Positions 412 to 55,319 of a stretch of DNA of 61,930 bases are shown in pieces. A program made the position numbers and the translations under genes. Location: IMG/VR virus record IMGVR_UViG_3300013099_000022. One strand, given 5' to 3'. The stretch's first letter is position 1, and every line of letters begins with the position of its first letter. Below the pieces are notes generated by a model that ran no database searches, had not been told where the DNA came from, and saw only the letters and a list, made by a program, of their open reading frames with translations. Source of the DNA: a virus.

Positions 412-1407
412 TTATTCTCCTATACTATCAATTATTATTTTTGCTTGTTCTATATAAGCATCATGATATTCTTCTGGAATCTCTTTAATTTTTAAATAAG
501 ATTTTAACTTATCTTCTGTAGACATTGAACTATTAATTCCTCTATTAGTTATATCTTTAATTGTTCTATCAACAATCTGAAAACTATCTTCTATATCAGA
601 AAAATTAGTTTCATCGATTTTTAATAATTTTATAAAATGTCCCTGTTTTTTAAGTTTCTTTGCTTCTTTTAATACTTCATCTTTATTATCTTTATCAATT
701 TCTAATTCAACATGTTTTTGATAACCTTTAGTTAGAACAGATTCAATTGTATGTTTTTTAGAATCAATAACTAAAAATCTCTTTTTCTCTCCCTTCTCTC
801 CCCAGTCTAATTGAATAATAGATCCAGGGATTATAACATTTCCTATTTCTTGAGGTAAATGATAATGCCCAATAAAACATTTTTTAAAGTGTTTTAAATC
901 TTTCATTCCAATATCTGAAACAATAGAAATACCTGAGTTTAGCATAGCTTCATTTAAACCAAAATGAGAAACTAGATAATCCATTTTAGAATCTTTAATA
1001 TCTTTTTTCATTTTCTTTGGATGCCATGGAACAAATGATATATTTCCAATTTCTCGTGTTTCATGTATCATAATAACATTTGGTTCATTATCAAGACATT
1101 TAAGAGCAGACACACCATCTCCAGATTTACTAGACATATCATGATTTCCATCAATAATTATAAATATTATATCTGGATGACTTCTTACATAATCTAATAA
1201 CATTGATTGAGCAAGAGAATGTATAATACTTTTAGTATGAAATGTATCTCCAGCTATAGCAATATGTTGTATATTATTATCTTTAGCATATTGAGCAATA
1301 TCATTTAATACTTTATTAATATAATACATTCTTCTGGGAATACCCTCAATTATATTGTCCTGACTATATAAGCTTAAATGCACATCAGCTATACAAATAA
1401 ATTTCAT
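412..1407 (-). CDS. Calcineurin-like metallophosphoesterase, SbcD/Mre11-like nuclease
   Basis: Phosphoesterase motifs in order: ADVHLS (D-x-H), GDTFH (GDxxH), GNHD (GNH[DE]), FIGHYH; typical of Mre11/SbcD and T4 gp47. Confidence 0.6.
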   Translation of the reverse strand: MKFICIADVHLSLYSQDNIIEGIPRRMYYINKVLNDIAQYAKDNNIQHIAIAGDTFHTKSIIHSLAQSMLLDYVRSHPDIIFIIIDGNHDMSSKSGDGVSALKCLDNEPNVIMIHETREIGNISFVPWHPKKMKKDIKDSKMDYLVSHFGLNEAMLNSGISIVSDIGMKDLKHFKKCFIGHYHLPQEIGNVIIPGSIIQLDWGEKGEKKRFLVIDSKKHTIESVLTKGYQKHVELEIDKDNKDEVLKEAKKLKKQGHFIKLLKIDETNFSDIEDSFQIVDRTIKDITNRGINSSMSTEDKLKSYLKIKEIPEEYHDAYIEQAKIIIDSIGE

Positions 1408-1610
1408 ATCTTTTTTCTCCTTTTTCTTCTTGGTAATCTAACTTTAACTTTTATTTCTTCTGGGGTTTTTAAAATAAATCTAATTCTATCCTCACATCTT
1501 TCACTACATGTTGGTTTAACTAAACATTTTTCACATGGATCAAAACTAGGCGCTGCGCCTATTAAATATGGATTAATTTTTAGCACTTTTTTTCTCCATA
1601 TAATGTTCAT
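1404..1610 (-). CDS. Small Cys-motif protein (DPCxxCLVxPxCxExC family, 4 paralogs in window), basic C-terminal tail
   Basis: DPCEKCLVKPTCSERCED motif shared with ORFs at 14802-14978, 53036-53272 and 53555-53848; RRKRRKK tail. Confidence 0.5.
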   Translation of the reverse strand: MNIIWRKKVLKINPYLIGAAPSFDPCEKCLVKPTCSERCEDRIRFILKTPEEIKVKVRLPRRKRRKKI

Positions 1611-3235: not shown

Positions 3236-3664
3236 TTACTCCGAATATTCTGCCATTGAATCATCACTCTCCCAAACCCTAACAAGATCAAGATACACAT
3301 CTATATTTTTTACTTTAAATATTTCAGTTAAAGCTTTATATATATATTTGCTAAATACTTCTGCAGTAGGATCTTCATTTGCCAAACTAATAAATTCTAA
3401 TTTATAATCTTGTTTTATTATATGATCTATATTTGCACGATCTGTTGGATTTAATACAGTTGCATGATCAAATCTATCTAAGAATGCATTAGTTAATACT
3501 TTTAAATCATGAAAATCTATAACCATATCATTCTTATCAAGTTTTTCAGTTGATAATTGTACTTCTATAACATAATTGTGACCATGCATATTATGACAAG
3601 CACCTTTATGTTTACTTAGTCTATGACCAGATGGTAATTTAAATCTTTTCATTACTTTATACAT
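3236..3664 (-). CDS. queD: 6-carboxytetrahydropterin / 6-pyruvoyl-tetrahydropterin synthase family protein (QueD/PTPS-like)
   Basis: 142 aa; hallmark Zn-binding CxxxHGH motif (CHNMHGHNY) plus conserved acidic/His residues typical of the QueD/PTPS fold. Confidence 0.6.
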   Translation of the reverse strand: MYKVMKRFKLPSGHRLSKHKGACHNMHGHNYVIEVQLSTEKLDKNDMVIDFHDLKVLTNAFLDRFDHATVLNPTDRANIDHIIKQDYKLEFISLANEDPTAEVFSKYIYKALTEIFKVKNIDVYLDLVRVWESDDSMAEYSE

Positions 3665-19183: not shown

Positions 19184-22100
19184 TTATCTCCATATCATCA
19201 TACTAATAAAATAACTATTTAATAAATCTCTAACAGGTGATGATTTTGCTGTACGATATTTAGCATGACCTGTTTGTATAATATCTGATAAAATTTCATT
19301 CTTTGTTATATGATCATCAGATAACGGTCCAAAAAATTCAGCAAGTAGATTTGGACAATTATAACTAATAAAAGAATATGTATCCAATTCACCCATTCTT
19401 TGACCACCTTCTCTTTTTTTACCAGCGGTTGGTTGAAAGGTTTTACTTACAACTGGACCAGTACTTCTAGCAGCTAATTTATCTTTAGCTATATGTTCCA
19501 ATTTTAACATATACATATATCCAACAGGAACTTTACTTTTTGTTTTTGTATTATATTCTGGTAATTTTAAATTATAACCAGCTTTAAGACCTAAGCTTTT
19601 TAAAGCAGCTAATATTTCTTTATAAGCTGGAGCTTTAAATGGAGGTATTAATATAGTCATAGATCCAGAATCTTTAACTTGTTTCATAAACTCTTTAAAT
19701 TTAGTATCTGACATAGCTCTAAAACTATTAATCAACTTTTTACTAAATTCTTTATTTTTTGTCATATCAAGATTAGGAAGAACTTTATTTAATAATGCTA
19801 TAACTTTTGTTTTATTATTTAATTTAAGTATTTGTCTTCCAAGTTCTTTAGATATAAGTCCAGTATACATTTCATATAATTGACCAACATTCATACGACC
19901 AACTACTCCAATAGGATTTAAAATAATATCAACTCTATCTCCAGTAGTAGTTCTTGGCATATTTTCTTCTTTTTCAATAAGAGAAACAATACCTTTAGCG
20001 CCATGTCTATTAGTTAATTTATCACCAATACCAACAGGAAGTTCTTGTTCTAGTTTAAATTTAATTAAAACACCTTGAATGACTTCTCCTTTATATATAA
20101 ACTTTTCTTTAGGTTTTAAACCATATCTAGATCTCGTTCTTTTAGTTAAAGCATCTAATTCTGGAAATTTTCCTTCTTTTAAATTATTAAATACTTCTAT
20201 ATCAACAATTTTACCACCAGGAGATTTTTTAATCATATGACCAGAAACAACTTCAACCCCTTCCTCTTCCTCATCAAAACCAATTAATTCTTCAATCTCT
20301 CCAATACTCTTTCTTAATAATGGTTCTCCTTTTATAGTCTCAGCTCCTAATTTATTTATAAATACAACTCTGTCATCTTTTGCTATTTCAACTTCTTCAA
20401 CTATACCATGTAATGAATTTAGAATTCCTTCTTTTACTATTCTTTCAGATATAACAATTCCATCCTCAAAGTTAAAACCTTTATAAGGCATTAAAGCAAC
20501 ACACATACTTCTTCCAAGAGCAATAGATCCACCAGTAATACATGATCCTTCAGCTATTATACTTTTATATTTAACAACTTGACCAACCTTTACAGTAGGT
20601 TTAAATACACTTAATGTATCCTTACCAGATCCTGATCTTAAATGAACTGGTGTTATTGATATAACTTTATTACCACCAGTACTACATTTAATAGAAATAT
20701 CATCTTTTGTTACCCTAGTAATCTTTCCATTACAAGGAGATTTTTTGATAAAATCATCAGACAAGACACTTGTTAAAATTGATTCATATCCTGATTGAAT
20801 CATTGGTATTTCTGGGTTTCTTAATGGTACAGCTTGTCTCATTTGACTACATCCAAACATAACCCTATTACCATCGTTATTTTCAACAAATGGTATTTGA
20901 GCAGCTGTTGTAGATAAAAGTCCAGAATTTTCACCTTCTTTTTTATCTTTAGTTTGAATAATACCTCTCGCTGATGTTATGAAAGCATCAACAGTTAATT
21001 GCTGTACAATACCAACATTTTCACCTTCAGGTGTATCAAGTGTATCAATATTTCCAAACATAGAATCATGAACATTACGACCTTCATTTTGTATAGCTTG
21101 TTTATCAGGTATACCTCCAATTGCTTTACCAACAGGAGAAACTCTTGTTTTAGTAGCCATTTCTTCTATTGGATTAGCATACTCCATATCAGCTACAATT
21201 TCTGAATTTATAAAATCGCTTAATACTTTAGTTTGAGATATAGAAAATATAGCTTTTTTATTGCCAGATAATACTTGTTCTTTATATTCTGTGTGAGCTG
21301 CTAAAATTTGCTTTTGTGCTAGATGAACAAGAATCTCTGAATTTCTTATTCTTTGATTTGATATATCATTTCTTTTTTGTACAAATCCTTCAACTGCTTT
21401 AGATGACATATATTTCATAATCAAATGTAATTCAGATGGTAATTGTTTATTTATTAAAACTTGTTTAGCTACAGGATCCACAATATTCTCTAAATTTGAT
21501 TGTATTAAAAATGTTGAATTAATACGACCCGCTATTTTAATAATCAAATCATTAAAATATTGTTTAGTTAAAAACTCTGCTTTTAAATTATATGAACTAA
21601 TGTTGGAATGAACTAATGATTGAATTAATTCTTCTTTTAATTTTGTATTGATATTTTCAAATAAAATCCATTGGTTATCGTCAACTTTAACGGTCCATTT
21701 AACCTCTTTATCAGGTTTCTCGTTTGTTATCTTATACCTAATATCATATAATTTCAGTGTCTCTTTAAAACCAAAACTAAAGGATAATAGAACCAATAAA
21801 GGAACTTTATATGATCCAATGTATGCTTCTAAATATTCTTCTCTTTTTGTTCTTTTACTCCAAATATGGAATGTAGAATAACTACTTTCAAACTTACTAT
21901 CATATTTTTTAGGGAATGTTATTGGACATAAAACTAATTGATTAATAAGACATTTTTTCTTACCATTAATTTGAAATGTTCCATCATCTGCTATATTAGG
22001 AACATCTAATAAAATTTCATGTTCTCTTTTAAATTTATCAACCATGGTAATTTTTATAGTACTAATATTTGATGGAGATAAATCCCCTCTTCTTATAGGT

Positions 22101-23275
22101 TTTTTAACAATATTAATAGTTTTAAACTTTAACGGAATATTTTTTGTTTCTAAAACCTTAAAAGAATTCACAACATCTTTCTTTAAATTAGTTTCAAAGT
22201 CTATTTTTCTTTTTTCAAAAATATGTTCAGGTGATTTATTACCAACTGCATTAGAAACATTTGATAATTGTATAACTAAATCTTCTGCTGTGGTTTCTGT
22301 TTTTTTAGGTTGTAATAATTCATCAGCATATTTTTTATCAATAACTTTTAGAGCAGCAGTTTTTTTATTTTCTGGAATTTTTGAAGTCGTTTTACGAGAT
22401 TTTCCCATATCGCCAGTTGTTCTATATAATACAGATGCTGTTGCAATATCTTTAGCGTCATTATTAGTTATATCATTATTATGAGCTTTTTCTAAAGTAT
22501 TTGGATTTTTCTCAAAAAACTTTTGTATTGATTGTTTAAATTTATTTTTGTTAGAAGGTGTTATATCATCTTTAATTTTTTTAATTACTGTATTGGTCGC
22601 AGTATTTATTTTATTTTCAAGTTCTTCATCATCATCAATAATTTTAATATTTTTAAGAAATAAATTTATTCTATTGAATTTAATAGATCTATCTTTCATT
22701 AATAGTCGATATCTAGATGAATTATCCCCAATGGTATTTAGTATCAAATGATCATAGTATAATTTATTTTTCTTTAATTCTATAACAAATGGAAATATTT
22801 TTCTATCAATATATTTATTCATACCTTTAGTTGCATTGGTACTATACATAAAAATCTTTTGATAATTATTAGGAAATGAACTAAATATTTTATCAATTAT
22901 ATTTTTTAATATAAAACCACCACGAGCTCTATAATTTTTTAATTTATATGCATTATCTAATATATTTAAAAAAGGTGTTAAGTCATACATAAGATTTTGT
23001 TTTTGAGGTATTGATTGTGTAGAACTAGAAGCTACCAAACCATACGCCTTATATGTTTTTTTAAGTTCTGGTGACATAAAGCTATATGGAATTTTTGTTT
23101 TAGGAACGATAACTTTTTTAACATCCACTCTTTTTAAATTTAATTTAGAATAATCATCAACTAATGTTGAATTTTCACTAAAGTAAAGTATAATGAAAGG
23201 ATTCTTGGAATCTTGTGGAAATCGTATCCCATTAACAACATGTGTAAATGGTTTAAGCGCTTTAAATTGAATCAT
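19184..23275 (-). CDS. Multisubunit RNA polymerase beta subunit homolog (full length, 1363 aa)
   Basis: C-terminal conserved beta motifs: ILNPIGVVGRMNVGQLYE (cf. NPLGVPSRMNIGQ) and GGQRMGELDTYSF (cf. GGQRFGEME); length matches bacterial beta. Confidence 0.8.
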   Translation of the reverse strand: MIQFKALKPFTHVVNGIRFPQDSKNPFIILYFSENSTLVDDYSKLNLKRVDVKKVIVPKTKIPYSFMSPELKKTYKAYGLVASSSTQSIPQKQNLMYDLTPFLNILDNAYKLKNYRARGGFILKNIIDKIFSSFPNNYQKIFMYSTNATKGMNKYIDRKIFPFVIELKKNKLYYDHLILNTIGDNSSRYRLLMKDRSIKFNRINLFLKNIKIIDDDEELENKINTATNTVIKKIKDDITPSNKNKFKQSIQKFFEKNPNTLEKAHNNDITNNDAKDIATASVLYRTTGDMGKSRKTTSKIPENKKTAALKVIDKKYADELLQPKKTETTAEDLVIQLSNVSNAVGNKSPEHIFEKRKIDFETNLKKDVVNSFKVLETKNIPLKFKTINIVKKPIRRGDLSPSNISTIKITMVDKFKREHEILLDVPNIADDGTFQINGKKKCLINQLVLCPITFPKKYDSKFESSYSTFHIWSKRTKREEYLEAYIGSYKVPLLVLLSFSFGFKETLKLYDIRYKITNEKPDKEVKWTVKVDDNQWILFENINTKLKEELIQSLVHSNISSYNLKAEFLTKQYFNDLIIKIAGRINSTFLIQSNLENIVDPVAKQVLINKQLPSELHLIMKYMSSKAVEGFVQKRNDISNQRIRNSEILVHLAQKQILAAHTEYKEQVLSGNKKAIFSISQTKVLSDFINSEIVADMEYANPIEEMATKTRVSPVGKAIGGIPDKQAIQNEGRNVHDSMFGNIDTLDTPEGENVGIVQQLTVDAFITSARGIIQTKDKKEGENSGLLSTTAAQIPFVENNDGNRVMFGCSQMRQAVPLRNPEIPMIQSGYESILTSVLSDDFIKKSPCNGKITRVTKDDISIKCSTGGNKVISITPVHLRSGSGKDTLSVFKPTVKVGQVVKYKSIIAEGSCITGGSIALGRSMCVALMPYKGFNFEDGIVISERIVKEGILNSLHGIVEEVEIAKDDRVVFINKLGAETIKGEPLLRKSIGEIEELIGFDEEEEGVEVVSGHMIKKSPGGKIVDIEVFNNLKEGKFPELDALTKRTRSRYGLKPKEKFIYKGEVIQGVLIKFKLEQELPVGIGDKLTNRHGAKGIVSLIEKEENMPRTTTGDRVDIILNPIGVVGRMNVGQLYEMYTGLISKELGRQILKLNNKTKVIALLNKVLPNLDMTKNKEFSKKLINSFRAMSDTKFKEFMKQVKDSGSMTILIPPFKAPAYKEILAALKSLGLKAGYNLKLPEYNTKTKSKVPVGYMYMLKLEHIAKDKLAARSTGPVVSKTFQPTAGKKREGGQRMGELDTYSFISYNCPNLLAEFFGPLSDDHITKNEILSDIIQTGHAKYRTAKSSPVRDLLNSYFISMMIWR

Positions 23276-24359: not shown

Positions 24360-24692
24360 TTACCCTTTACAATTTTTAGAACATTTCTTTTTATAACCAT
24401 CTTTTGTTCCTATAAATGGTAATACTTTACCGCATTCACATAAAGCTCTCCCATTATAACAATTCATTACATTATAAACTCTTTCTTTGAATGAAGATGA
24501 TTTAGGTAAGTAGTCTGTATATTTATATAAAGCATCATAAATTCTAATTGAATTTATTTTTATTTTTTTGGAAGCACCTCTTAATCCATCAGGAAAATTT
24601 TCTTTTATATAAATTGACACTATTTCTCTATTCATAAATTTACCTCTTTTATTTTTCCAATCCAGATAATGGATCATTATTAATAATATCAT
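24360..24692 (-). CDS. Hypothetical protein with C-terminal Cys cluster
   Basis: CECGKV...CSKNC; overlaps 5' end of neighbour in the ORF track by 44 nt, so the true start may be internal. Confidence 0.35.
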   Translation of the reverse strand: MILLIMIHYLDWKNKRGKFMNREIVSIYIKENFPDGLRGASKKIKINSIRIYDALYKYTDYLPKSSSFKERVYNVMNCYNGRALCECGKVLPFIGTKDGYKKKCSKNCKG

Positions 24693-26988
24693 CTAACATA
24701 TCACGTTTTACTAAAGATACTGCTCCACCTGTATGAAAAGTTTTCATTATTAATTGCGTGCCTCTTTCTCCAATAAGTTGAGCAGCTAATATTCCAATAT
24801 AAGGAGTTTGATGTCTTTGTAATAATTTACCATAACAAGTATGACATATTTTTTCAGACTTACAATAGATAGGAGTTCTTATACTAGCTATATCACCAAC
24901 TTTAAATTTAGCTCTTTCAAATTCCATCAATTTCCCGTTTTTAATAACAAACCTTCCTGTAAATCTTTTAATTAAAACATCATTAAGTTTTATGTTTAAT
25001 GTTTTTGTTGTTTTACAATCTTTTATACGAGGGTCAAGTTCTACTGTATTTAATAAATAAGCTAATTTTCTTGACATATATCCTGTTTCAGCTGTATTAA
25101 TAACTCTATCAATAATACCTTTTCTTGCTCCTTGAGAGGCATCAAAGTATTCTCTATTAGATAAACCATCAGCAAATGACCCTGATATAGGATCTAAAAC
25201 ATTACCGTCAGGATCAGCGATAACACCTTTTGCAACTAGTATTTGCATTGGTTGACCCCATCCCTTAGTAGACCCTGAATTAGCAAGATCTCCAAATCCT
25301 GTATTGTCTAAATGCTTTTCTAATATTTTTTGAGCTTCCTCTATTAGAGTTTGAGCTTCCTCTGGATCTGCTGTTTTTAATTTTTCTTTAATCTTTAAAA
25401 CCGAGGCTGGTAATTCAAAAGTATCTAAGCTCATAGATGGAGCCATGATGGTAGCCCATTTAAATCCAACTTCTTTTAATTTATCAACAACTATTTTAAT
25501 AATATCATCACCATGTTTATTATAAGTCTGTTCAATCTTTGAGTTAATTGTTTTTTTAGTTGCTTGTGCTTCCATATAACCCATATCTTTTGGAAAGCAA
25601 CTATTAACAATAGCTTTACCCATTGTTGTTTTTTGACCTCTATATTTAACTGCTATATACGGTTCGGTTGCATTTTCAATATCTTCATTAGATACTGCTA
25701 ATGGTGACCCTGTTGGTTTTTTATCTTTTGTAATAGTATATAACCCAGCCCATATTTCTTTTGATAAACCAAAAATAAACTCAGAAGATGATGTTCCAGA
25801 AGTTAGTTTCATCATTCTTGTTCTTGCTTCATCTTGAGCCTCATCTGTTAATGGATGATATACAGCCATTGTATCGCCATCAAAATCTGCATTATGAACA
25901 CCAACTTGAGTAGTAGACATAAGCATTGTATCGCCTCTATGTAAGACAGGAAAATAAGCTAAATAACTTTGAGTATGTAAAACTGGATCCCTTTTTACTA
26001 CTACAACACGACCCATCATTGAAACTTCTGTTTGTATAAAGAATAATTCATAAAGATTTTCTGGAATTTTATCTCCTTCTTTAATACCTTTCATTACTCT
26101 TTTAACAGATTCAGTTGAAAGTTCCATTCCATTAAATTCTTTGATACCTTTTTCTAAAACATCTTTATCAACTTTACCAGAATATAATAATCTGTTCATA
26201 ATAAAAGGTTCAAATAAGCTAATAGCTAATCTTAGTGGTAATCCAACTTCATTGATTTTTATTTTTGGATCAGGTGTTATAACAGATCGACCAGAAAAAT
26301 CAATACGTTTTCCTAACATTTGATCTCGAATAATACCTTTCTTTTTACCAATCTTTGATCTAATATAATTATCATGATCCATAACTGCTAATTGCATAGA
26401 ATAATTTAATAAATCATATAACGGACCAGAACCAGAAGATCTTAATTGAGAAGCCTTTCTCATAACAGAAATATATACATCATTTAATTGATCATCCATC
26501 CTATTACCATCTTCACCTTTTATAGAAGGTCTTAAATCTGGAGGAATTACAATAATTTTATCAATAAACATTGTGTTGTTTTTAGTTTCTTTTTTAATGA
26601 GTTTAATAAGCTTTTTTCTTAATTCAGTTCCACCTCTCCAATTTATACTAGGAAATAATTTTATAAACTCTTTCATCCCAGTAACACCTTTATTGTTTAT
26701 CTCTAATATACCATCTTTATCTAAAATAAAAGATTCTTCAGTAGAAATAAACTTTTCTACTCTTCTATCTATTTGTAATAATATTCTATACATAGCAGGA
26801 TGAATAGCGTAACCATATAATTCAAAATAAGAGAATATAATTCTTCTATCTGGCGAACCATCTGGTCCAAAAATGTCTTCACTAAACAAACCTTCTTCAT
26901 GAAAGTCACCAGATTTAGTGGTAGTGATCATAGATGTTACTGGTTTAAGATTTTTACAAAAACTTTTTGGATTTAATAATCTTAACAT
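24649..26988 (-). CDS. Multisubunit RNA polymerase beta-prime subunit, N-terminal fragment (split beta-prime)
   Basis: Catalytic NADFDGD motif present; N-terminal ...EDIFGP motif; ends at AAQLIGERGTQLIMKTFHTGG (bridge helix/trigger-loop start), so the C-terminal roughly 40 percent of beta-prime is not encoded here. Confidence 0.85.
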   Translation of the reverse strand: MLRLLNPKSFCKNLKPVTSMITTTKSGDFHEEGLFSEDIFGPDGSPDRRIIFSYFELYGYAIHPAMYRILLQIDRRVEKFISTEESFILDKDGILEINNKGVTGMKEFIKLFPSINWRGGTELRKKLIKLIKKETKNNTMFIDKIIVIPPDLRPSIKGEDGNRMDDQLNDVYISVMRKASQLRSSGSGPLYDLLNYSMQLAVMDHDNYIRSKIGKKKGIIRDQMLGKRIDFSGRSVITPDPKIKINEVGLPLRLAISLFEPFIMNRLLYSGKVDKDVLEKGIKEFNGMELSTESVKRVMKGIKEGDKIPENLYELFFIQTEVSMMGRVVVVKRDPVLHTQSYLAYFPVLHRGDTMLMSTTQVGVHNADFDGDTMAVYHPLTDEAQDEARTRMMKLTSGTSSSEFIFGLSKEIWAGLYTITKDKKPTGSPLAVSNEDIENATEPYIAVKYRGQKTTMGKAIVNSCFPKDMGYMEAQATKKTINSKIEQTYNKHGDDIIKIVVDKLKEVGFKWATIMAPSMSLDTFELPASVLKIKEKLKTADPEEAQTLIEEAQKILEKHLDNTGFGDLANSGSTKGWGQPMQILVAKGVIADPDGNVLDPISGSFADGLSNREYFDASQGARKGIIDRVINTAETGYMSRKLAYLLNTVELDPRIKDCKTTKTLNIKLNDVLIKRFTGRFVIKNGKLMEFERAKFKVGDIASIRTPIYCKSEKICHTCYGKLLQRHQTPYIGILAAQLIGERGTQLIMKTFHTGGAVSLVKRDMLDDIINNDPLSGLEK

Positions 26989-45840: not shown

Positions 45841-46338
45841 TTATTTTTTCTTTAAAATTTTATTAAATTTTGCTATTTGTTTTTGATAGAATGTTTCTTC
45901 TGGTTTAGTAATTCTTAAAGGATGTGTGATTGAAACTTTGGATTTGAATAATAGATATTGTTGTTGTTTGAATTTTCCTGTATCAACATTTCCAAGTGAA
46001 ATTAGATGATATAATCCTTTTACTTTTCTTCCTTGCATAGTTATAGTAATATGAGCTGGTGTAAATTTATTTAATGTAGCAACACCTTGGTCAAATAATT
46101 CAATATTACCACCGCCATATTCTCCAGCAGGAATATCTCCTTTAAACAAAGCTTCTTTTTCAGAATGAATATGAGTCTTAATTGCTAAAACTCTTTTACC
46201 TGAATGTAAAGGAACTGTTTTAGGAACTGCAAATGAGTGCCAGTGATTGCTTTTATTAGGATCTTCAAATCGCAAATCTTGATGATATCCAGCACGTCTC
46301 GCTTTATGGTTATGTATTACAAATCTTATTTTTTTCAT
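45841..46338 (-). CDS. LigD-type 3'-phosphoesterase (PE) domain protein
   Basis: N-terminal RFVIHNHKARRAGYHQDLRFE matches LigD PE signature (FV.Q.H.A.RLHYD.RLE); 165 aa standalone. Confidence 0.5.
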   Translation of the reverse strand: MKKIRFVIHNHKARRAGYHQDLRFEDPNKSNHWHSFAVPKTVPLHSGKRVLAIKTHIHSEKEALFKGDIPAGEYGGGNIELFDQGVATLNKFTPAHITITMQGRKVKGLYHLISLGNVDTGKFKQQQYLLFKSKVSITHPLRITKPEETFYQKQIAKFNKILKKK

Positions 46339-47312: not shown

Positions 47313-47585
47313 TTATACTGTAAGTATTATTTTATTTTCAATGATTTGAATTAATACATCTCCGTGACATGGTTTTGGTTTGCAATAACATCCAAGGGTT
47401 TTATTTTTTAATTCAGAGATGCAACTTAATAATTTTTTATTATTTAATATATAATCTTTATATTTATTTATTACTTCAGTTCTATTTCCATCTTTTCCTA
47501 TTATAAAAGGATTTCCCCATTTAGAACCTCTACCAATATAAATATCATAATCATGTTTCTCACAATGGACTACTTTTATAGCCAC
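47313..47585 (-). CDS. DUF4326-family protein
   Basis: YIGRGSKWGNPF ... LGCYCKPKPCHGDVL signature. Confidence 0.5.
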   Translation of the reverse strand: MAIKVVHCEKHDYDIYIGRGSKWGNPFIIGKDGNRTEVINKYKDYILNNKKLLSCISELKNKTLGCYCKPKPCHGDVLIQIIENKIILTV

Positions 47586-47836
47586 TGATCATCTCTTGCA
47601 ATTGATGCATTAGCCCACATAATAGCTTCTTCAATTTTAGTAATAGCAATAGATTTCTCTCTACTATCTGGGCATACAGCATTTATATACTCTACTAAAT
47701 CTTTTCCATTATTTCTTAATTGTCCATATATTCCAACTTGTTTTGGTGTTGGTGCATGATATTTAAAGTTATTCTCAATCTCTGTTTGTTTCACTTGATT
47801 CTCCTTGTTCATAAAAATGTGGATTATTCTTTTCAT
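47576..47836 (-). CDS. Hypothetical protein (86 aa)
   Basis: ORF track; overlaps upstream gene, so start uncertain. Confidence 0.3.
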   Translation of the reverse strand: MKRIIHIFMNKENQVKQTEIENNFKYHAPTPKQVGIYGQLRNNGKDLVEYINAVCPDSREKSIAITKIEEAIMWANASIARDDQWL

Positions 47837-48101
47837 CGCACTCTTTCATTGACCAATATGATCTATCACAACCACCACATATTGGAGTTAAAACACCATG
47901 TTGCACAGCTCCACAATGAGGACAAGCTATTTCTCCAACTGGAACTTTATATTTTAAAGCTGGTTCTCTTGGCCAATCTTGATTCAAGAGTGCTATAGTA
48001 TGTTTTTTTACGCACTCTTCTGAGCAGAATGTTTGGAACATAGTTCCTTTATCATTTTCCCATTTATAATATTCTTTTTGACAGTGTAAGCATATAGCCA
48101 T
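47775..48101 (-). CDS. Zinc-finger-rich hypothetical protein (108 aa)
   Basis: CLHCQ, CPHCG, CGGCD pairs. Confidence 0.4.
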   Translation of the reverse strand: MAICLHCQKEYYKWENDKGTMFQTFCSEECVKKHTIALLNQDWPREPALKYKVPVGEIACPHCGAVQHGVLTPICGGCDRSYWSMKECDEKNNPHFYEQGESSETNRD

Positions 48102-48415
48102 TATAATTCCTTTTTAACTTCTTCTTCGCCTTTGTCTTCATGCGGTTCATGTTCAATATCTAATTTTTCTAATAAATATTCAAACTCGCCAATATGTTCT
48201 TTTTCTTCATTTGCTACATTTAATAATACTTGTTTAACATCTTTATCAACTGCTGCTTCAGACATCTGTTCATATAAATTTATTGCATCATATTCAGCAA
48301 TAATAGCAGCTCTTAAAATTTCCATATCTTTTCTTTTACTAGAAACTTTAGTGTCTTTATTAGGAATGATTGACATTAACTCTGTTAAATATTTATTTAT
48401 ATAATTTTTATCCAT
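48101..48415 (-). CDS. Possible ferritin-like/rubrerythrin-like small protein
   Basis: E..AI.AEYDAINLYEQ....LLNVANEEKEHIGEF resembles ExxH diiron helix pairs; weak. Confidence 0.3.
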   Translation of the reverse strand: MDKNYINKYLTELMSIIPNKDTKVSSKRKDMEILRAAIIAEYDAINLYEQMSEAAVDKDVKQVLLNVANEEKEHIGEFEYLLEKLDIEHEPHEDKGEEEVKKEL

Positions 48416-52042: not shown

Positions 52043-53035
52043 TTAACTTAAAATATTAGTACAGCTTATATTAATTGGTGTATCATTAAAATCTTTTCCC
52101 GTTTTATTATAATATACATGTAATGATTCTATTAAATGTTTATTATATTTCATAATTTTCTCGTAATATTTTATAGGTATTTCTCTGTCAGATAAAATAT
52201 GTATTATTGGTCTAAAAATTTGTTCATTAAAAACAACACTTTTTATAGCTGCTGCGTACGAAGTTGATAAGGCTGCTATATAAGCTGCAGCTTTATTCTT
52301 TAATTCTAGCACATTATATATATGTTCAGAGTAAATATCAAATATTCCCTCCGCCATAATAATATGTTTTGAATTTTTTTTAAACCCAAACAACTTATAA
52401 TAATCTAATAATTGTGATGGTTGAATATTTAATTTATAATATCTAAACTCTGATTTGCTGTCAATGTTTCTCATGGATACACAAGATTGATTTTCAGTTA
52501 AAAACCCCACAAAGTTAGTTTGTAAATAATCTTTAAACCTTAAAACTTTTTCATCTAATTGTATATTATTTATTCTTATTAATTCATCAATATCAAACAC
52601 TAACCCACTAACAGAATCTAATGGTATGTTTTCAAATTTAAATCTTTGTTTAATGTATAATGATTTTAAAGAAAACTTATCAGTATTTAATTTTGGTAAT
52701 ATAATATCTTTTGGTTTAAATTCATTTTTTTCAAATTTTACTTTTTCTACTTTAAAGTGTTTAACTTGTTCTTTATTAACATAAGTAGATGAAGAATCTT
52801 TACCTTCTATCTTTTCCGTAAGTTTTCTAATTAATCCGCTTTGATTACATCCACCTCTAAAGCAATGAAATATAGGATCATGCATTGAAATCCATAAATG
52901 GTCTTTAGATGTTTCTACTCCTAAATCACACCAAGGGCATTTAGTAATAATATTCTTAGGATTGGTTTTTATTGAACCTAAATTAACTTCAAGATAATTT
53001 AAAAATTCTTCATTATATATACCTACTGTCCCCAT
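52043..53035 (-). CDS. DnaG-like DNA primase (CHC2 zinc-binding domain plus TOPRIM)
   Basis: CPWCDLGVETSKDHLWISMHDPIFHCFRGGC (cf. DnaG CPFH.EKTPSF......FHCFGCG); TOPRIM-like IIMAEGIFDIYS (cf. vEGymDv). Confidence 0.55.
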   Translation of the reverse strand: MGTVGIYNEEFLNYLEVNLGSIKTNPKNIITKCPWCDLGVETSKDHLWISMHDPIFHCFRGGCNQSGLIRKLTEKIEGKDSSSTYVNKEQVKHFKVEKVKFEKNEFKPKDIILPKLNTDKFSLKSLYIKQRFKFENIPLDSVSGLVFDIDELIRINNIQLDEKVLRFKDYLQTNFVGFLTENQSCVSMRNIDSKSEFRYYKLNIQPSQLLDYYKLFGFKKNSKHIIMAEGIFDIYSEHIYNVLELKNKAAAYIAALSTSYAAAIKSVVFNEQIFRPIIHILSDREIPIKYYEKIMKYNKHLIESLHVYYNKTGKDFNDTPINISCTNILS

Positions 53036-53272
53036 TTATTTATCTCTCTCTAAAAAATTTAATCCATACATTTTAAATATATTATTACAATATTTACATT
53101 TTAATTGATAAAGCATAGAAGAATTTGTATTAAAATAATTTTTTTCACCACAATCAGGACAAATTTTATATTCAGTTAAAAATTTAGAAACTGATTCTCT
53201 AGAACGATTTTTTAGTTCTTTACATAACTCTGTGCATGTAGGTGCTACTAAACATTCTCTACATGGAAACAT
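53036..53272 (-). CDS. Small Cys-motif protein (PCxxCLVxPTCxExC family)
   Basis: MFPCRECLVAPTCTELCKEL plus CPDCG...CKYC. Confidence 0.45.
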   Translation of the reverse strand: MFPCRECLVAPTCTELCKELKNRSRESVSKFLTEYKICPDCGEKNYFNTNSSMLYQLKCKYCNNIFKMYGLNFLERDK

Positions 53273-53544
53273 TATTCTTTATATTCTTCAGCAATTTTAG
53301 TACAACTAACTATCATTGATTGAAACATTTTATTAACATCTTTTATATCTTTCATTTTAATCTGAGAATATAATATTTTTTTTAATGGTGTAAATAATAT
53401 ATTATAATCAATGCTTTGTCCTGATGGACTTTTTTGTTTTTTCTTTTTCATTGGACATCCACCTGCTACTGGAGGGTGTGAAAATCCACATTCTGGACAT
53501 GTTCCCTGACTCATCCCTTGCATATTACCGTGTTCATTTCCCAT
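53272..53544 (-). CDS. Small hypothetical protein with CPECG...CP motif
   Basis: ORF track. Confidence 0.35.
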   Translation of the reverse strand: MGNEHGNMQGMSQGTCPECGFSHPPVAGGCPMKKKKQKSPSGQSIDYNILFTPLKKILYSQIKMKDIKDVNKMFQSMIVSCTKIAEEYKE

Positions 53545-53554
53545 TTTTTATCTC

Positions 53555-53848
53555 CTATATTCTTTCTATAAATAGTGGTAACGCCATATTAAATCTATGA
53601 CCACATTTTGCACATGAAATATTTTGTGACATACCACCTGATGGACCTTCAAGTAAATGAGTTGATCCGCAATCTATACAACATTCATATTTTAAAAATA
53701 ACTTTTTTATTTTTTCTTTGTTAGTTTCAACTTTATCACATATTTCACTACAACCAGTTGGTAGAATTAAACAATCAATACATGGAAATGTATGTTTTTT
53801 AAATTTATCTATTTTTAAAATATTTTTTAATCTTTCTAATAAAATCAT
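53555..53848 (-). CDS. Small Cys-motif protein (PCxxCLIxPTGCSExC family)
   Basis: HTFPCIDCLILPTGCSEICDKV plus CIDCG...CAKCG. Confidence 0.45.
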   Translation of the reverse strand: MILLERLKNILKIDKFKKHTFPCIDCLILPTGCSEICDKVETNKEKIKKLFLKYECCIDCGSTHLLEGPSGGMSQNISCAKCGHRFNMALPLFIERI

Positions 53849-54192
53849 TTTTCTTTAGATCCTCCAATCATCATATATCTTAACCAATCAACTAATCCTT
53901 CTCCATGGCATCCAGAACATGGTGTGTTACCAATTTTCCCATAACCTTTACATCTTGGACAAAGTTTTTTAGTCATTGTTTCTTTCCAGCTCAAATAACC
54001 AATACCTTCACAATGATCACAAAAACTACTACCATCCCAAGCATAATCCCCTTCAAGACTAGCTATATTATCTAATCCTGTTCCATTACAATGATTACAT
54101 GGTCTAATAGATTCAGAAAAGTTTTGTCTAATTAAATCCCTTTTTTTATTCGCCTTCAACATTTGAGTTGGGGTTAGAAACATTTTTTTCAT
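53845..54192 (-). CDS. DnaJ-type zinc-finger (CxxCxGxG repeat) small protein
   Basis: CNHCNGTG, CDHCEGIG, CPRCKGYG, CSGCHGEG: four CxxCxGxG repeats. Confidence 0.5.
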   Translation of the reverse strand: MKKMFLTPTQMLKANKKRDLIRQNFSESIRPCNHCNGTGLDNIASLEGDYAWDGSSFCDHCEGIGYLSWKETMTKKLCPRCKGYGKIGNTPCSGCHGEGLVDWLRYMMIGGSKEK

Positions 54193-54335: not shown

Positions 54336-55319
54336 TCACCTCTTTATATTTTGAAAGTATGCAGTACATGATTGAATCATTTCAAAGATCATTGCTGATA
54401 CATGCATACTAGGCACCAAACAACTTAAATGATCTCTTGAATATTTATTACATATGATTTTAGCTGGAACTGGTATTGCTTTATGATTAAATAAAACTTC
54501 ATAAATATTACCAAATTCTAAATCTTGTTTATCTAGTAATTTAATTATATTATTTACTTCTTTATTAATCATAGAACCTTTACCAATTTTAATATAATTC
54601 ATTATTTCGACAACTGAAGCAATTAGAGCTTTTTCTGTCGTGAGGGCAATATCTTTATTAACATTTAATTTTCCAGTATTACTATTACGTTGTAATAAAT
54701 TTACTATTTTTCTAACATCTGGATATAAGTTTTCAATTATATATCTTATATCTTCTTCTCTATATTCAATATTTTCTTCTTTGAGTATTTTAGTTGTATA
54801 CGCCTCAACAAAATCCATTGGCATTTGTTTAAAAGAAAAATGAGTGAATCTGCTAACTATGGGATCTGGAATTTTTGAAGGATAGTTACATGTAAAAATA
54901 AATCTACCGTATCTAATTTGATATTTTTCAATTATTCCCCTTAAAGATAAGAAACTTTCTTGGGTTAAATTGTCTGCTTCATCAATAAAAACTATTTTGT
55001 ATTTATCTGTACCAGCAGGGGGTACACGTAAAAAAGGTTCTATAACTTGCTGAGTAAAATTAATAGATCTTGTTTTTTGGCTAGAACCATTAGCCATTAA
55101 TAGATTTGATTTTGGTATTTGTAACACACCCTCTTTGCTACATATAATACGAGCTAATGTTGTCTTACCACCACCTGCAGGACCACTTAAAAGAAGGTTT
55201 GGTAATTTATTCTTTTTAACAAAACTTTTAATTTCTGTTGAATATTGTTCTGGTAAAATTACATCTTCAATTATCTTTGGGCGAAATTTTTCTACCCAAA
55301 GTGAATTTTCCATTTTCAT
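54336..55319 (-). CDS. AAA+ sliding-clamp loader subunit (RFC small subunit / T4 gp44-like)
   Basis: Walker A SGPAGGGKTT, Walker B FIDEADNL, sensor-1 CN, SRF motif (SRFTHFSF). Confidence 0.8.
   Translation of the reverse strand: MKMENSLWVEKFRPKIIEDVILPEQYSTEIKSFVKKNKLPNLLLSGPAGGGKTTLARIICSKEGVLQIPKSNLLMANGSSQKTRSINFTQQVIEPFLRVPPAGTDKYKIVFIDEADNLTQESFLSLRGIIEKYQIRYGRFIFTCNYPSKIPDPIVSRFTHFSFKQMPMDFVEAYTTKILKEENIEYREEDIRYIIENLYPDVRKIVNLLQRNSNTGKLNVNKDIALTTEKALIASVVEIMNYIKIGKGSMINKEVNNIIKLLDKQDLEFGNIYEVLFNHKAIPVPAKIICNKYSRDHLSCLVPSMHVSAMIFEMIQSCTAYFQNIKR

Follow-up and report, generated by a model that had tools for sequence, protein, structure and literature searches.

A four-cysteine N-terminal module shared by four small genes of an uncultured jumbo phage defines a virus-restricted family of putative metal-binding mini-domains

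We analyzed a 61,930-nucleotide stretch of viral DNA (IMG/VR record IMGVR_UViG_3300013099_000022; hereafter the window) in which four small genes, all on the minus strand, encode proteins of 58–97 amino acids (aa) with the same closely spaced set of four cysteines near the N terminus. Two of them add a second cysteine site: a 78-aa gene at 53036..53272 encodes eight Cys, with an N-terminal Cys4 module and a predicted C-terminal Cys4 zinc ribbon, and the product of a 97-aa gene at 53555..53848 runs from an N-terminal leader helix through the Cys4 module and a linker helix to a predicted C-terminal zinc ribbon. The other two contain the module only. One, at 1404..1610, is 68 aa long when read from the ATG at 1610 and ends in a basic tail (RLPRRKRRKKI); the other, at 14802..14978, is 58 aa long (54 aa if read from Met5) and has an acidic helical tail. 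A preliminary description of this DNA had listed the same four open reading frames (ORFs) as members of a phage-specific family of zinc-binding mini-proteins, and we recovered all of them at these coordinates, on the minus strand, and with the peptides it gave. Below, P-numbers denote proteins and L-numbers denote the contigs or loci compared.

The pattern common to the four ORFs near the N terminus is P-C-x2-C-[LIV]-[VI]-x3-4-C-x3-C. A six-frame search of the window with the regular expression C..C[LIVM][LIVM].P.{1,3}C.{2,4}C returned exactly four matches, all in the four named ORFs. We also scored each module with a local hidden Markov model (HMM) of 125 family members. In the 78-aa protein, the module occupies residues 3–17 (53222..53266, minus strand; PCRECLVAPTCTELC), has the spacing C-x2-C-x5-C-x3-C, and scored 45.3 bits; in the 97-aa protein, it occupies residues 22–37 (53738..53785, minus strand; PCIDCLILPTGCSEIC) and is an x6 loop variant scoring 40 bits. 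The module of the 1404–1610 ORF lies at 1494..1538 (minus strand; PCEKCLVKPTCSERC; 41 bits), and that of the 58-aa protein, again an x6 loop variant, lies at 14910..14957 (minus strand; PCKNCLVEPLGCEQMC; 37 bits). The four ORFs therefore score 37–45 bits, as against 6 bits for the next-best ORF in the window. No match to the motif arose in 300 shuffles of the window DNA or in 1000 shuffles of the minus-strand ORF residues, compared with the four observed. A DNA repeat as the origin of the motif was ruled out, the motif-coding DNA being just 65–71% identical between copies. The motif as first described, PC..CL[VI].P.{1,2}C.E.C, fits three of the four ORFs but not the 58-aa one, in which the Glu is shifted by one position (CEQMC). 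Its four Cys hold across the family, but its Pro in the C2–C3 loop and its Glu before C4 occur in 39% and 43% of members, respectively. Once 125 module segments had been aligned, the Pro preceding C1 and the four Cys proved invariant.

The window has a GC content of 27%, and all its ORFs of at least 150 aa are on the minus strand. The start of the 78-aa gene overlaps the stop of an upstream 90-aa gene (TAATG), and the start of the 97-aa gene overlaps the stop of an upstream DnaJ-type gene (ATGA) and is preceded by a GGAGG Shine-Dalgarno sequence. For the 1404–1610 ORF, the most likely start is the GTG at 1586, which gives 60 aa (1404–1586), because a GGAG Shine-Dalgarno sequence lies upstream of it and the 60-aa form is called in public assemblies (P0040); we refer to this product as the 60-aa protein. 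In the 58-aa ORF, the second Met, which has GGAGGAGG before it, may be the true start. Identical proteins have been called independently in ENA, JGI, Logan, and NCBI assemblies: the 78-aa protein is identical to P0010 of public assemblies, the 97-aa protein to P0001 on six contigs, and the 58-aa protein to P0039 of a JGI assembly. Related genes were found for all four. The 97-aa protein has ~35 homologs at 43–72% identity with invariant Cys, and the 78-aa protein has the orthologs P0018, P0011, P0121, and P0067. Orthologs of the 60-aa protein are P0141 and the product of L033:6655-6861, and those of the 58-aa protein (P0105, P0106, and P0172) have CP[ED]VI[ED]FY..R...R[ST]K.E.E..TG in common. 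In a rough Nei-Gojobori estimate, the ratio of nonsynonymous to synonymous substitution rates (dN/dS) was 0.21 between the 97-aa gene and its L038 counterpart and 0.41 between the 60-aa gene and that of L033; the primase-like gene next to the 78-aa gene gave 0.14. Taken together, the common orientation and tight packing of the ORFs, their start/stop overlaps or Shine-Dalgarno sequences, the independent calls, the orthologs, and the dN/dS values indicate that all four are real genes.

The proteins differ widely in charge, with an isoelectric point (pI) of 10.0 for the 60-aa protein, 4.6 for the 58-aa protein, and ~8.6 for the two module-plus-ribbon proteins of 78 and 97 aa. They also diverge much faster than the surrounding core genes while the Cys skeleton stays unchanged throughout: the 78-aa protein is 45% identical to its ortholog on L005, the closest relative, versus 68–79% for the products of neighboring genes (79% for the primase-like one). 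That ortholog (L005:9505-9690, on the 202.7-kb contig IMGVR_UViG_3300035390_000014) is just 61 aa long and ends within the zinc ribbon (…EYIIDCIG*). Decay of the gene, an error in sequencing, or true variation may explain this, as well as the lack of a 97-aa ortholog in the same phage.

We built a 29-position profile of the N-terminal segment (alignment A5) and searched it exhaustively against 1.84 billion representative proteins. It matched 141 clusters (50% identity) at E≤1e-3, nearly all with lengths of 46–230 aa, which on inspection conformed near-perfectly to the module pattern, with the consensus [N/F/Y]-P-C-[K/R]-x-C-[L/I/V]-V-[K/R]-[P/A]-x-C-[S/T]-[E/K/Q]-x-C-[D/N]-[K/D/E]-[L/I/V]. Invariance of the Pro and the four Cys was also seen in smaller alignments: P3, C4, C7, C13, and C17 of the 78-aa protein are invariant among 62 aligned module-plus-ribbon proteins, and P22, C23, C26, C33, and C37 of the 97-aa protein among 34 homologs. 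We take as family members those proteins with P-C-x2(-5)-C-[LIVF]-[VI]-x3-4-C-x3-C, an invariant Pro and four invariant Cys, and a profile score of at least ~35 bits, a threshold that all four window proteins pass. The module proteins (n = 172) have a median length of 100 aa (range, 46–228), and in 99 of the 172 the module Pro falls within the first 11 residues (0-based offset ≤10). What follows the module varies. In 80 of the 172 it is a C-terminal Cys4 ribbon, the architecture of the 78- and 97-aa proteins; at least 18 of the 172 have one or more transmembrane helices as a tail, and others have short soluble tails. P0036, P0052, P0089, and P0132 are among the tandem module doublets. Among the 137 family proteins with the x5 loop spacing, 74% have a pI above 8. 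Since the module stands by itself, is joined to a range of partners, and can be duplicated within one protein, these data indicate that its ~20 residues form a real, autonomous mini-domain. The "family of at least four" in the window is a set of four old, distinct subfamilies with only the module in common. When ten of the longer module proteins were searched against Pfam, only P0048 (228 aa, on a 2.2-kb ENA metagenome contig) carried a known extra domain: its module and half a ribbon are followed by a PsbP/DcrB-like domain (PF18933, 1.7e-9), and it may be a true fusion or an artifact of a frameshift or of gene calling.

The idea that the motif is a chance or compositional artifact, or that the ORFs are not expressed, draws on their shortness and on the absence of one of them from the ORF track of the preliminary description, but it is effectively refuted by the empty shuffles, by invariant Cys common to 141 independent clusters, by orthologs kept in synteny, by the translation signals, and by a dN/dS well below 1 in two of four pairs.

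The module appears to be restricted to viruses. We searched with a degenerate DNA pattern encoding P-C-x2-C-h-[IVM]-x3-C-[ST]-x2-C-D, which covers the commonest variant and thus gives a lower bound, and found 25 loci in IMG/VR viral contigs. In cellular genomes (596 Gb of GTDB; 185,579 bacterial and archaeal species representatives), the same pattern occurred at three sites, all of them spurious, with stop codons inside the motif or without an ORF context or proper start. The module is thus found on viral contigs and appears to be absent from the cellular genomes searched. Ten cluster representatives that we inspected were all metagenomic singletons or near-singletons without an informative name, one of them labeled "hypothetical protein". 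A word-index protein search with 30-aa segments gave 25 candidates only, a search for IMG/VR relatives of the 78-, 68-, and 58-aa proteins gave no confirmed relatives, and tblastn with the consensus module and the 78-aa protein gave only chance-level matches among 50,697 GenBank phage records.

Within viral genomes, the module has expanded, and more than one copy is present on many of the viral contigs. Arrays of module genes hold 23 copies in L032, eight in L024, six in L012, and five in L027, where the five are module-plus-ribbon genes in a row. Such arrays, together with the 141 clusters and the 25 viral loci against three spurious cellular sites, bear out the earlier suggestion of a phage-specific expanded family. 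The L032 array (L032:3753-10664 on the 88.9-kb contig IMGVR_UViG_3300037468_000575) is the largest expansion that we saw: a head-to-tail series of 23 small genes (45–98 aa), all on the same strand and located a few kb from a large terminase gene. Its members have eight conserved Cys in the arrangement C-x2-4-C-x6-10-C-x~13-C-P-C-x2-C-[LI][IV]K-x2-C-x3-C-x-R. In the source genome itself, our census with the module HMM covered the window plus 10 kb beyond its low end.

No known family accounted for the module. Pfam, PHROGs, and NCBIfam searches with the four proteins, and Pfam and PHROGs searches with the 125 module segments, returned nothing over it (Pfam limits, E≤1 for the four proteins and E≤10 for the segments), and the sole family-library matches were sub-threshold zinc-ribbon ones on C-terminal halves. 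Module profiles A2 and A6 had zero matches in the PDB by sequence at E≤10, and we found nothing relevant in the literature on phage families of cysteine-rich or zinc-knuckle small proteins. In AlphaFold2 models of the 78-aa protein (62 sequences), the module had a predicted local distance difference test score (pLDDT) of 54–63 against a mean of 80 for the model, and in those of the 97-aa protein (34 sequences) a pLDDT of ~50, without regular secondary structure in either case. Fold searches with the two models gave nothing significant.

We then compared the module with the short metal sites that it most resembles. Gag-knuckle CCHC (PF00098, C-x2-C-x4-H-x4-C) and CCCH (C-x5-C-x3-H) fingers are short sites in proteins that are small, basic, and often nucleic-acid-binding. 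Like the Gag knuckle, the module is a 14-residue site that opens with C-x2-C, and its last spacings, x5 and x3, are like those of CCCH fingers. Compared by pattern, it differs from both in its all-Cys ligands, its other spacing, the Pro before C1, and the L-V after C2; it has no His, and neither the four proteins nor the 125 segments matched PF00098 at the limits given above. The x5 form, which is that of the 78- and 60-aa proteins and of the majority of family members, has the same Cys spacing as the SPASM/twitch domain, whereas the 97- and 58-aa proteins have x6. Unlike SPASM proteins, module proteins have no radical S-adenosylmethionine (SAM) core, no upstream C-x9-15-G-x4-C, and no trailing Cys, and they are free-standing viral proteins of 50–100 aa; the window proteins had no PF13186 or PF04055 match, and their motif sits N-terminally in 58–97 aa. 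WhiB-like proteins are small iron–sulfur (Fe-S) transcription factors, some of them actinophage-encoded, with four Cys that include C-x2-C-x5-C and with a hydrophobic residue and Val after the second Cys. In the module, the fourth Cys lies 3 residues downstream of this element, whereas in WhiB-like proteins it lies 14–22 residues upstream. The module loci have a GC content of 27–40%, and their hosts are not high-GC actinobacteria. We found neither a G[V/I]WGG turn nor a match to PF02467 in the four proteins or the 125 segments. Membership of the DnaJ finger family (PF00684) was also ruled out: the four proteins have neither CxxCxGxG nor a match, and the DnaJ-type 115-aa neighbor has no module match. 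The module would work like a short zinc knuckle, yet by ligand pattern and HMM it falls outside the CCHC, SPASM, WhiB, and DnaJ families, and on this sequence evidence it is best described as a new, so far undescribed, virus-restricted family of small, presumably metal-binding Cys4 domains.

Two further candidates were rejected. Precursors of peptides made by ribosomes and modified after translation (RiPPs) were ruled out, as conservation falls on the Cys motif, the tails consist of folded domains or transmembrane helices, and no maturase is linked. Secreted disulfide-rich peptides were ruled out too, since there is no signal peptide and the module sits at the extreme N terminus; the positive residues on the module side of the transmembrane helices also speak against secretion.

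The extra CxxC pairs that had been pointed out in two of the four proteins belong to a genuine second domain, which we placed at 53087..53161 (minus strand) for the 78-aa protein (C38-x2-C41 ... C59-x2-C62) and at 53603..53680 (minus strand) for the 97-aa protein (C57-x2-C60 ... C79-x2-C82, with an EGPSGG loop). Among 62 homologs of the former, C38, C41, and C59 are invariant and C62 is nearly so; among 34 homologs of the latter, C57, D59, C60, G61, and C79 are invariant, and C82 and H84 are nearly so. The two knuckles, C-[P/I]-D-C-G and C-x2-C, are 17–18 residues apart. AlphaFold predicted strands at residues 54–58, 65–69, and 72–77 of the 78-aa protein (pLDDT ~85–91) and four beta-strands in the 97-aa ribbon (pLDDT 79–84, ~83 overall). 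A ribbon family profile (A7) matched solved ribbons in the PDB, namely Rpa12 (E = 1.2e-5), DpnI (5e-4), Rpb9 (8e-4), and also L37Ae, Elf1, and TFIIB. Single-sequence Pfam matches over the ribbons of both proteins were all below cut-offs; the Lar ribbon (PF14354), for instance, scored 16.2 bits (E = 0.013) on the ribbon part of the 78-aa protein only, against a cut-off of 28.6. From knuckle spacing, predicted beta-hairpins, and similarity to solved ribbons, both the 78-aa and the 97-aa protein are predicted to end in an ordinary zinc ribbon of a known kind, like those of Rpa12/Rpb9/TFIIS, L37Ae/eL43, Elf1, the DpnI N-terminal domain, and small CPxCG proteins. Only two of the four proteins show this likeness, and they do so in the C-terminal half only. 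The N-terminal module differs from zinc ribbons, with all four Cys within 14–15 residues. Module and ribbon together give the 78-aa and the 97-aa protein two four-Cys sites each.

The genomic setting of the genes bears on their possible roles. The window sequence is also present on a 73-kb ENA contig, a 246,859-bp NCBI contig (GCA_029935735.1, JAPOGZ010000001.1), and a 269,986-bp contig, and its source is an uncultured jumbo phage with a genome of ~250–270 kb; none of the 50,697 GenBank phage records is a close relative. The window encodes UvsX-like, Mre11/SbcD-like, and SNF2-like proteins, the subunits of a type II topoisomerase, and a ribonucleotide reductase, and an SbcC-like gene lies just past its low end. 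ORFs of 1363 and 779 aa at 19184-23275 and 24649-26988 (minus strand) match phage RNA polymerase (RNAP) beta/beta' PHROGs (E 1e-46 to 1e-79), and the phage therefore carries its own multisubunit RNAP beside T4-like replication genes.

The 78- and 97-aa genes lie between a gp44-like clamp-loader ATPase gene (54336..55319, minus strand; phrog_168, 1.8e-58; ~33% identity to a T4-like cyanophage clamp loader) and a 330-aa primase-like gene directly downstream of the 78-aa gene (52043..53035, minus strand). The latter is so named from weak similarity to the DNA primase of Bacillus phages AR9/PBS1 (27% identical residues over 58% of the length; E ~6e-6 to 8e-6), and searches of Pfam, PHROGs, and the PDB returned no match for its product. 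A strong terminator-like hairpin (55438-55401, minus strand; a 15-bp stem and then a T-run) lies just upstream of the clamp-loader gene and may mark the start of the gene run that holds the 97- and 78-aa genes. The order after the hairpin is clamp loader, 61 aa, DnaJ-type finger, 97 aa, 90 aa, 78 aa, primase-like, p128. Parts of this order recur elsewhere: L039 has clamp loader, P0009, primase-like, p128, and L040 has clamp loader, DnaJ-like, P0025, 63 aa, primase-like, p128. In L027, the clamp loader is followed directly by the five module-plus-ribbon copies, the primase being outside the view. Among these jumbo phages, the clamp loaders are 48–59% identical, and a primase-like ortholog follows a module-plus-ribbon gene in L039, L040, and L005. 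The 60-aa gene likewise keeps its place, between the SNF2/transmembrane-protein genes and the Mre11-like gene, in L033.

Two other Cys-containing ORFs are interleaved with the module genes, and neither contains the module according to the HMM. The 115-aa protein at 53845-54192 (minus strand) has a DnaJ-type CXXCXGXG finger, as had been noted before (PF00684, 40.7 bits against a cut-off of 32.7), without a J domain, and is kept beside the module genes in L005 and L040. The 90-aa protein at 53272-53544 (minus strand) has CPECG...H...C and a Lys-rich stretch without a family match, and is conserved in L005 (66% identity), L027, and L040. The gene at 12174-14723 (minus strand), directly downstream of the one for the 58-aa protein, encodes 849 aa with a short internal EIPKGD repeat, three times in tandem; its product had no PHROG match at E≤1e-5.

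With moderate confidence, we favor the explanation that the four genes belong to a virus-restricted family of small binding proteins with a metal-binding N-terminal module. The four Cys would hold one metal through the C-x2-C knuckle and the first turn of the following helix, so that the module would fold into a very small head able to do without a hydrophobic core; the 78- and 97-aa proteins would bind two metals, one in the module and one in the ribbon. On this common head, the family would carry differing tails: a ribbon, a basic tail (60 aa), an acidic helix (58 aa), transmembrane helices, or a second module. The module proteins would be small non-enzymatic binders in which head and ribbon contact nucleic acid or a replication or transcription partner and the tail sets specificity.

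As to the metal, the earlier label "zinc-binding" is well founded for the C-terminal ribbons, from the profile and the AlphaFold models; for the module itself, it is plausible from the four invariant Cys alone. These Cys suggest that the module most likely binds a single structural metal, which is probably Zn(II). Zinc is favored because the unit is all-Cys, spans 14–15 residues, tolerates different loop lengths, and is joined to a plain ribbon in half of the family; because the C-[S/T]-x-x-C-[D/N] end reads as a helix N-cap with ligands on either side; because the L032 proteins have exactly eight Cys, which fits two tetrahedral sites; and because the span is like that of Gag-knuckle fingers and the last spacings like those of CCCH fingers.

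Several observations weigh against this overall account. The AlphaFold pLDDT of 50–63 on the module leaves the knuckle-plus-helix geometry without modeling support. The spacing C-x2-C-x5-C-x3-C is also that of SPASM auxiliary Fe-S sites, so that zinc is a preference only; the C-x2-C-x5-C element is present in several [4Fe-4S] proteins, and the C1–C2 spacer is 4–5 residues long in many homologs of the 97-aa type (FPCSDDNC), which is not a canonical zinc knuckle. As for the genes, the 78-aa gene gave a dN/dS of 0.85 against L005, and the dN/dS values are only indicative, as the genome is AT-rich and its synonymous sites are almost saturated. L005, the closest relative, lacks a 97-aa gene in the position between the DnaJ-type gene and the 90-aa gene, and it is there that the 78-aa ortholog is shortened. 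In L038, the P0013 ortholog lies directly downstream of the RNAP genes and not in the replication block. The placement between clamp loader and primase may itself reflect shared ancestry of a syntenic block rather than function.

An Fe-S cluster in the module in place of zinc, perhaps held by a dimer in which one chain supplies three Cys and its partner the fourth, in the manner of ferredoxin-type and SPASM-type motifs, is possible though unlikely. The proteins would then be small redox- or O2/NO-sensitive regulators, like phage-encoded WhiB-like proteins. SPASM radical-SAM enzymes such as PqqE and SkfB have CX2CX5CX3C as their auxiliary-cluster motif, and this exact spacing is found in most of the family, two of the window's four proteins included. 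The failure of AlphaFold on the module would fit a need for a bulky cofactor or a partner chain. The shorter C-x2-C-x5-C is the core of the WhiB, EndoIII, and Cas4 cluster sites and so counts for a cluster as well. P0025 gave NCBIfam matches to ferredoxins/polyferredoxin (E 0.0025–0.3), but these were far under cut-offs and Cys-driven. At the E-value limits given above, we observed zero matches to WhiB, SPASM, or any Fer4 family with the four proteins or the 125 segments, and we saw no Pro after the last Cys, and no Gly-rich context. The variability of the loop (x5, x6, x7) and of the first spacer (2 to 5 residues), as well as the pairing with a plain zinc ribbon in half of the family, also argues against a cluster.

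The preliminary description had put forward host-takeover factors, small transcription regulators, or RNAP-associated factors as plausible roles. Narrower functions than generic binding can be proposed from the gene context, which gives differing hints: the clamp-loader/primase slot to the replisome; arrays, fast divergence, and patchy presence to accessory host-interaction roles; and RNAP adjacency in L038, with the ribbon similarity, to transcription. The three do not lend themselves to a confident ranking. According to the first, the 78- and 97-aa proteins are replisome accessories that bind the clamp loader, the clamp, the primase, or primed DNA, and would, for example, partly replace a missing gp62- or gp59-like subunit. 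At least one module-plus-ribbon gene occupies the clamp-loader-to-primase slot in the window, L039, and L040, and five follow the L027 clamp loader; the genes are translationally coupled to their neighbors, and the proteins are basic at pI ~8.6. We nevertheless regard such a role as doubtful. The proteins are far smaller than gp62 and gp59, which have roughly 190–220 aa. The 97-aa gene is missing from L005, whose replication genes are intact, and the P0013 ortholog adjoins RNAP genes instead. The module-plus-ribbon proteins also form tandem arrays, unlike single-copy core machinery, and evolve much faster than the primase.

Another proposal is that the module proteins are quickly diversifying host-takeover or anti-defense binders with a constant metal-stabilized head and variable tails, in which gene duplication and divergence would track host targets. 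Virus restriction, tandem arrays of five to 23 diverged copies, the faster divergence of the non-Cys sequence than of core neighbors (45% versus 68–79% identity), presence/absence differences between close relatives, and variable tails that include membrane anchors all fit this proposal. We found no match to a known anti-defense family, though no search was aimed at anti-defense libraries, and no defined target; moreover, arrays and fast evolution are equally typical of dispensable "morons" under weak constraint. We consider a host-takeover or anti-defense role of the family unlikely. A more far-reaching version, tentative and with the balance well against it, would make the module a new virus-only metal-binding fold, either a new type of zinc knuckle or a minimal, possibly intermolecular Fe-S site, that serves as a universal N-terminal "plug" for one conserved target; interchangeable tails would deliver different activities, and the 5- to 23-copy arrays would be the arms-race diversification of a host-takeover/anti-defense toolkit.

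That the proteins serve the phage's own multisubunit RNAP, as transcription factors or RNAP-associated zinc-ribbon proteins, strikes us as quite improbable. The phage does encode beta- and beta'-like subunits, P0013 lies directly downstream of the RNAP genes in L038, and in the PDB the ribbon is most similar in sequence to Rpa12 and Rpb9, which are RNAP zinc-ribbon subunits, and to Elf1. However, these matches represent generic ribbon similarity (E 1e-5 to 1e-2) and include ribosomal L37Ae and DpnI. The ribbon loop, EGPSGG, is without the acidic hairpin that TFIIS-type ribbons have. In the window and three other phages, the genes are found in the replication block and not beside the RNAP genes.

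Small Cys-rich proteins make up a large part of phage "dark matter" and are usually dismissed one by one; here, one 20-residue signature unites well over a hundred clusters of virus-only small proteins. The module offers annotators a new domain model, and its proteins, at 54–78 aa, give experimenters a compact, easily synthesized target for questions of metal, fold, and docking. Should it prove a common adapter for jumbo-phage replication, transcription, or host-takeover factors, many orphan genes would be explained together; should it be only a structural staple for tiny proteins, it would still be a useful family definition, of modest biological weight. Small Cys-rich phage proteins are common, and nothing yet indicates an unusual mechanism.

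The window and related contigs also hold genes apart from the module family. A 72-aa product encoded at 47576-47794 (minus strand; L001:16055-16273) has a precomputed Pfam match to PF24729 (Acb2_Tad1_hairpin), which we take to be a family of signal sponges acting against CBASS and Thoeris defense; if so, the gene is a candidate anti-defense gene. A PTPS/QueD-like gene at 3236-3664 (minus strand), a radical-SAM gene in the same genome ~4 kb past the low end of the window (L041:15645-16688), and a GTP cyclohydrolase I gene on a related contig (L038:6560-7402) suggest a 7-deazaguanine (queuosine/archaeosine-type) DNA-modification pathway. Lastly, precomputed Pfam matches identified LigD_N, the 3'-phosphoesterase domain of LigD, at 45841-46338 (minus strand; L001:17511-18008) and an encapsulated-ferritin/rubrerythrin-like domain at 48101-48415 (minus strand; L001:15434-15748); both are accessory genes that are unusual for a phage.

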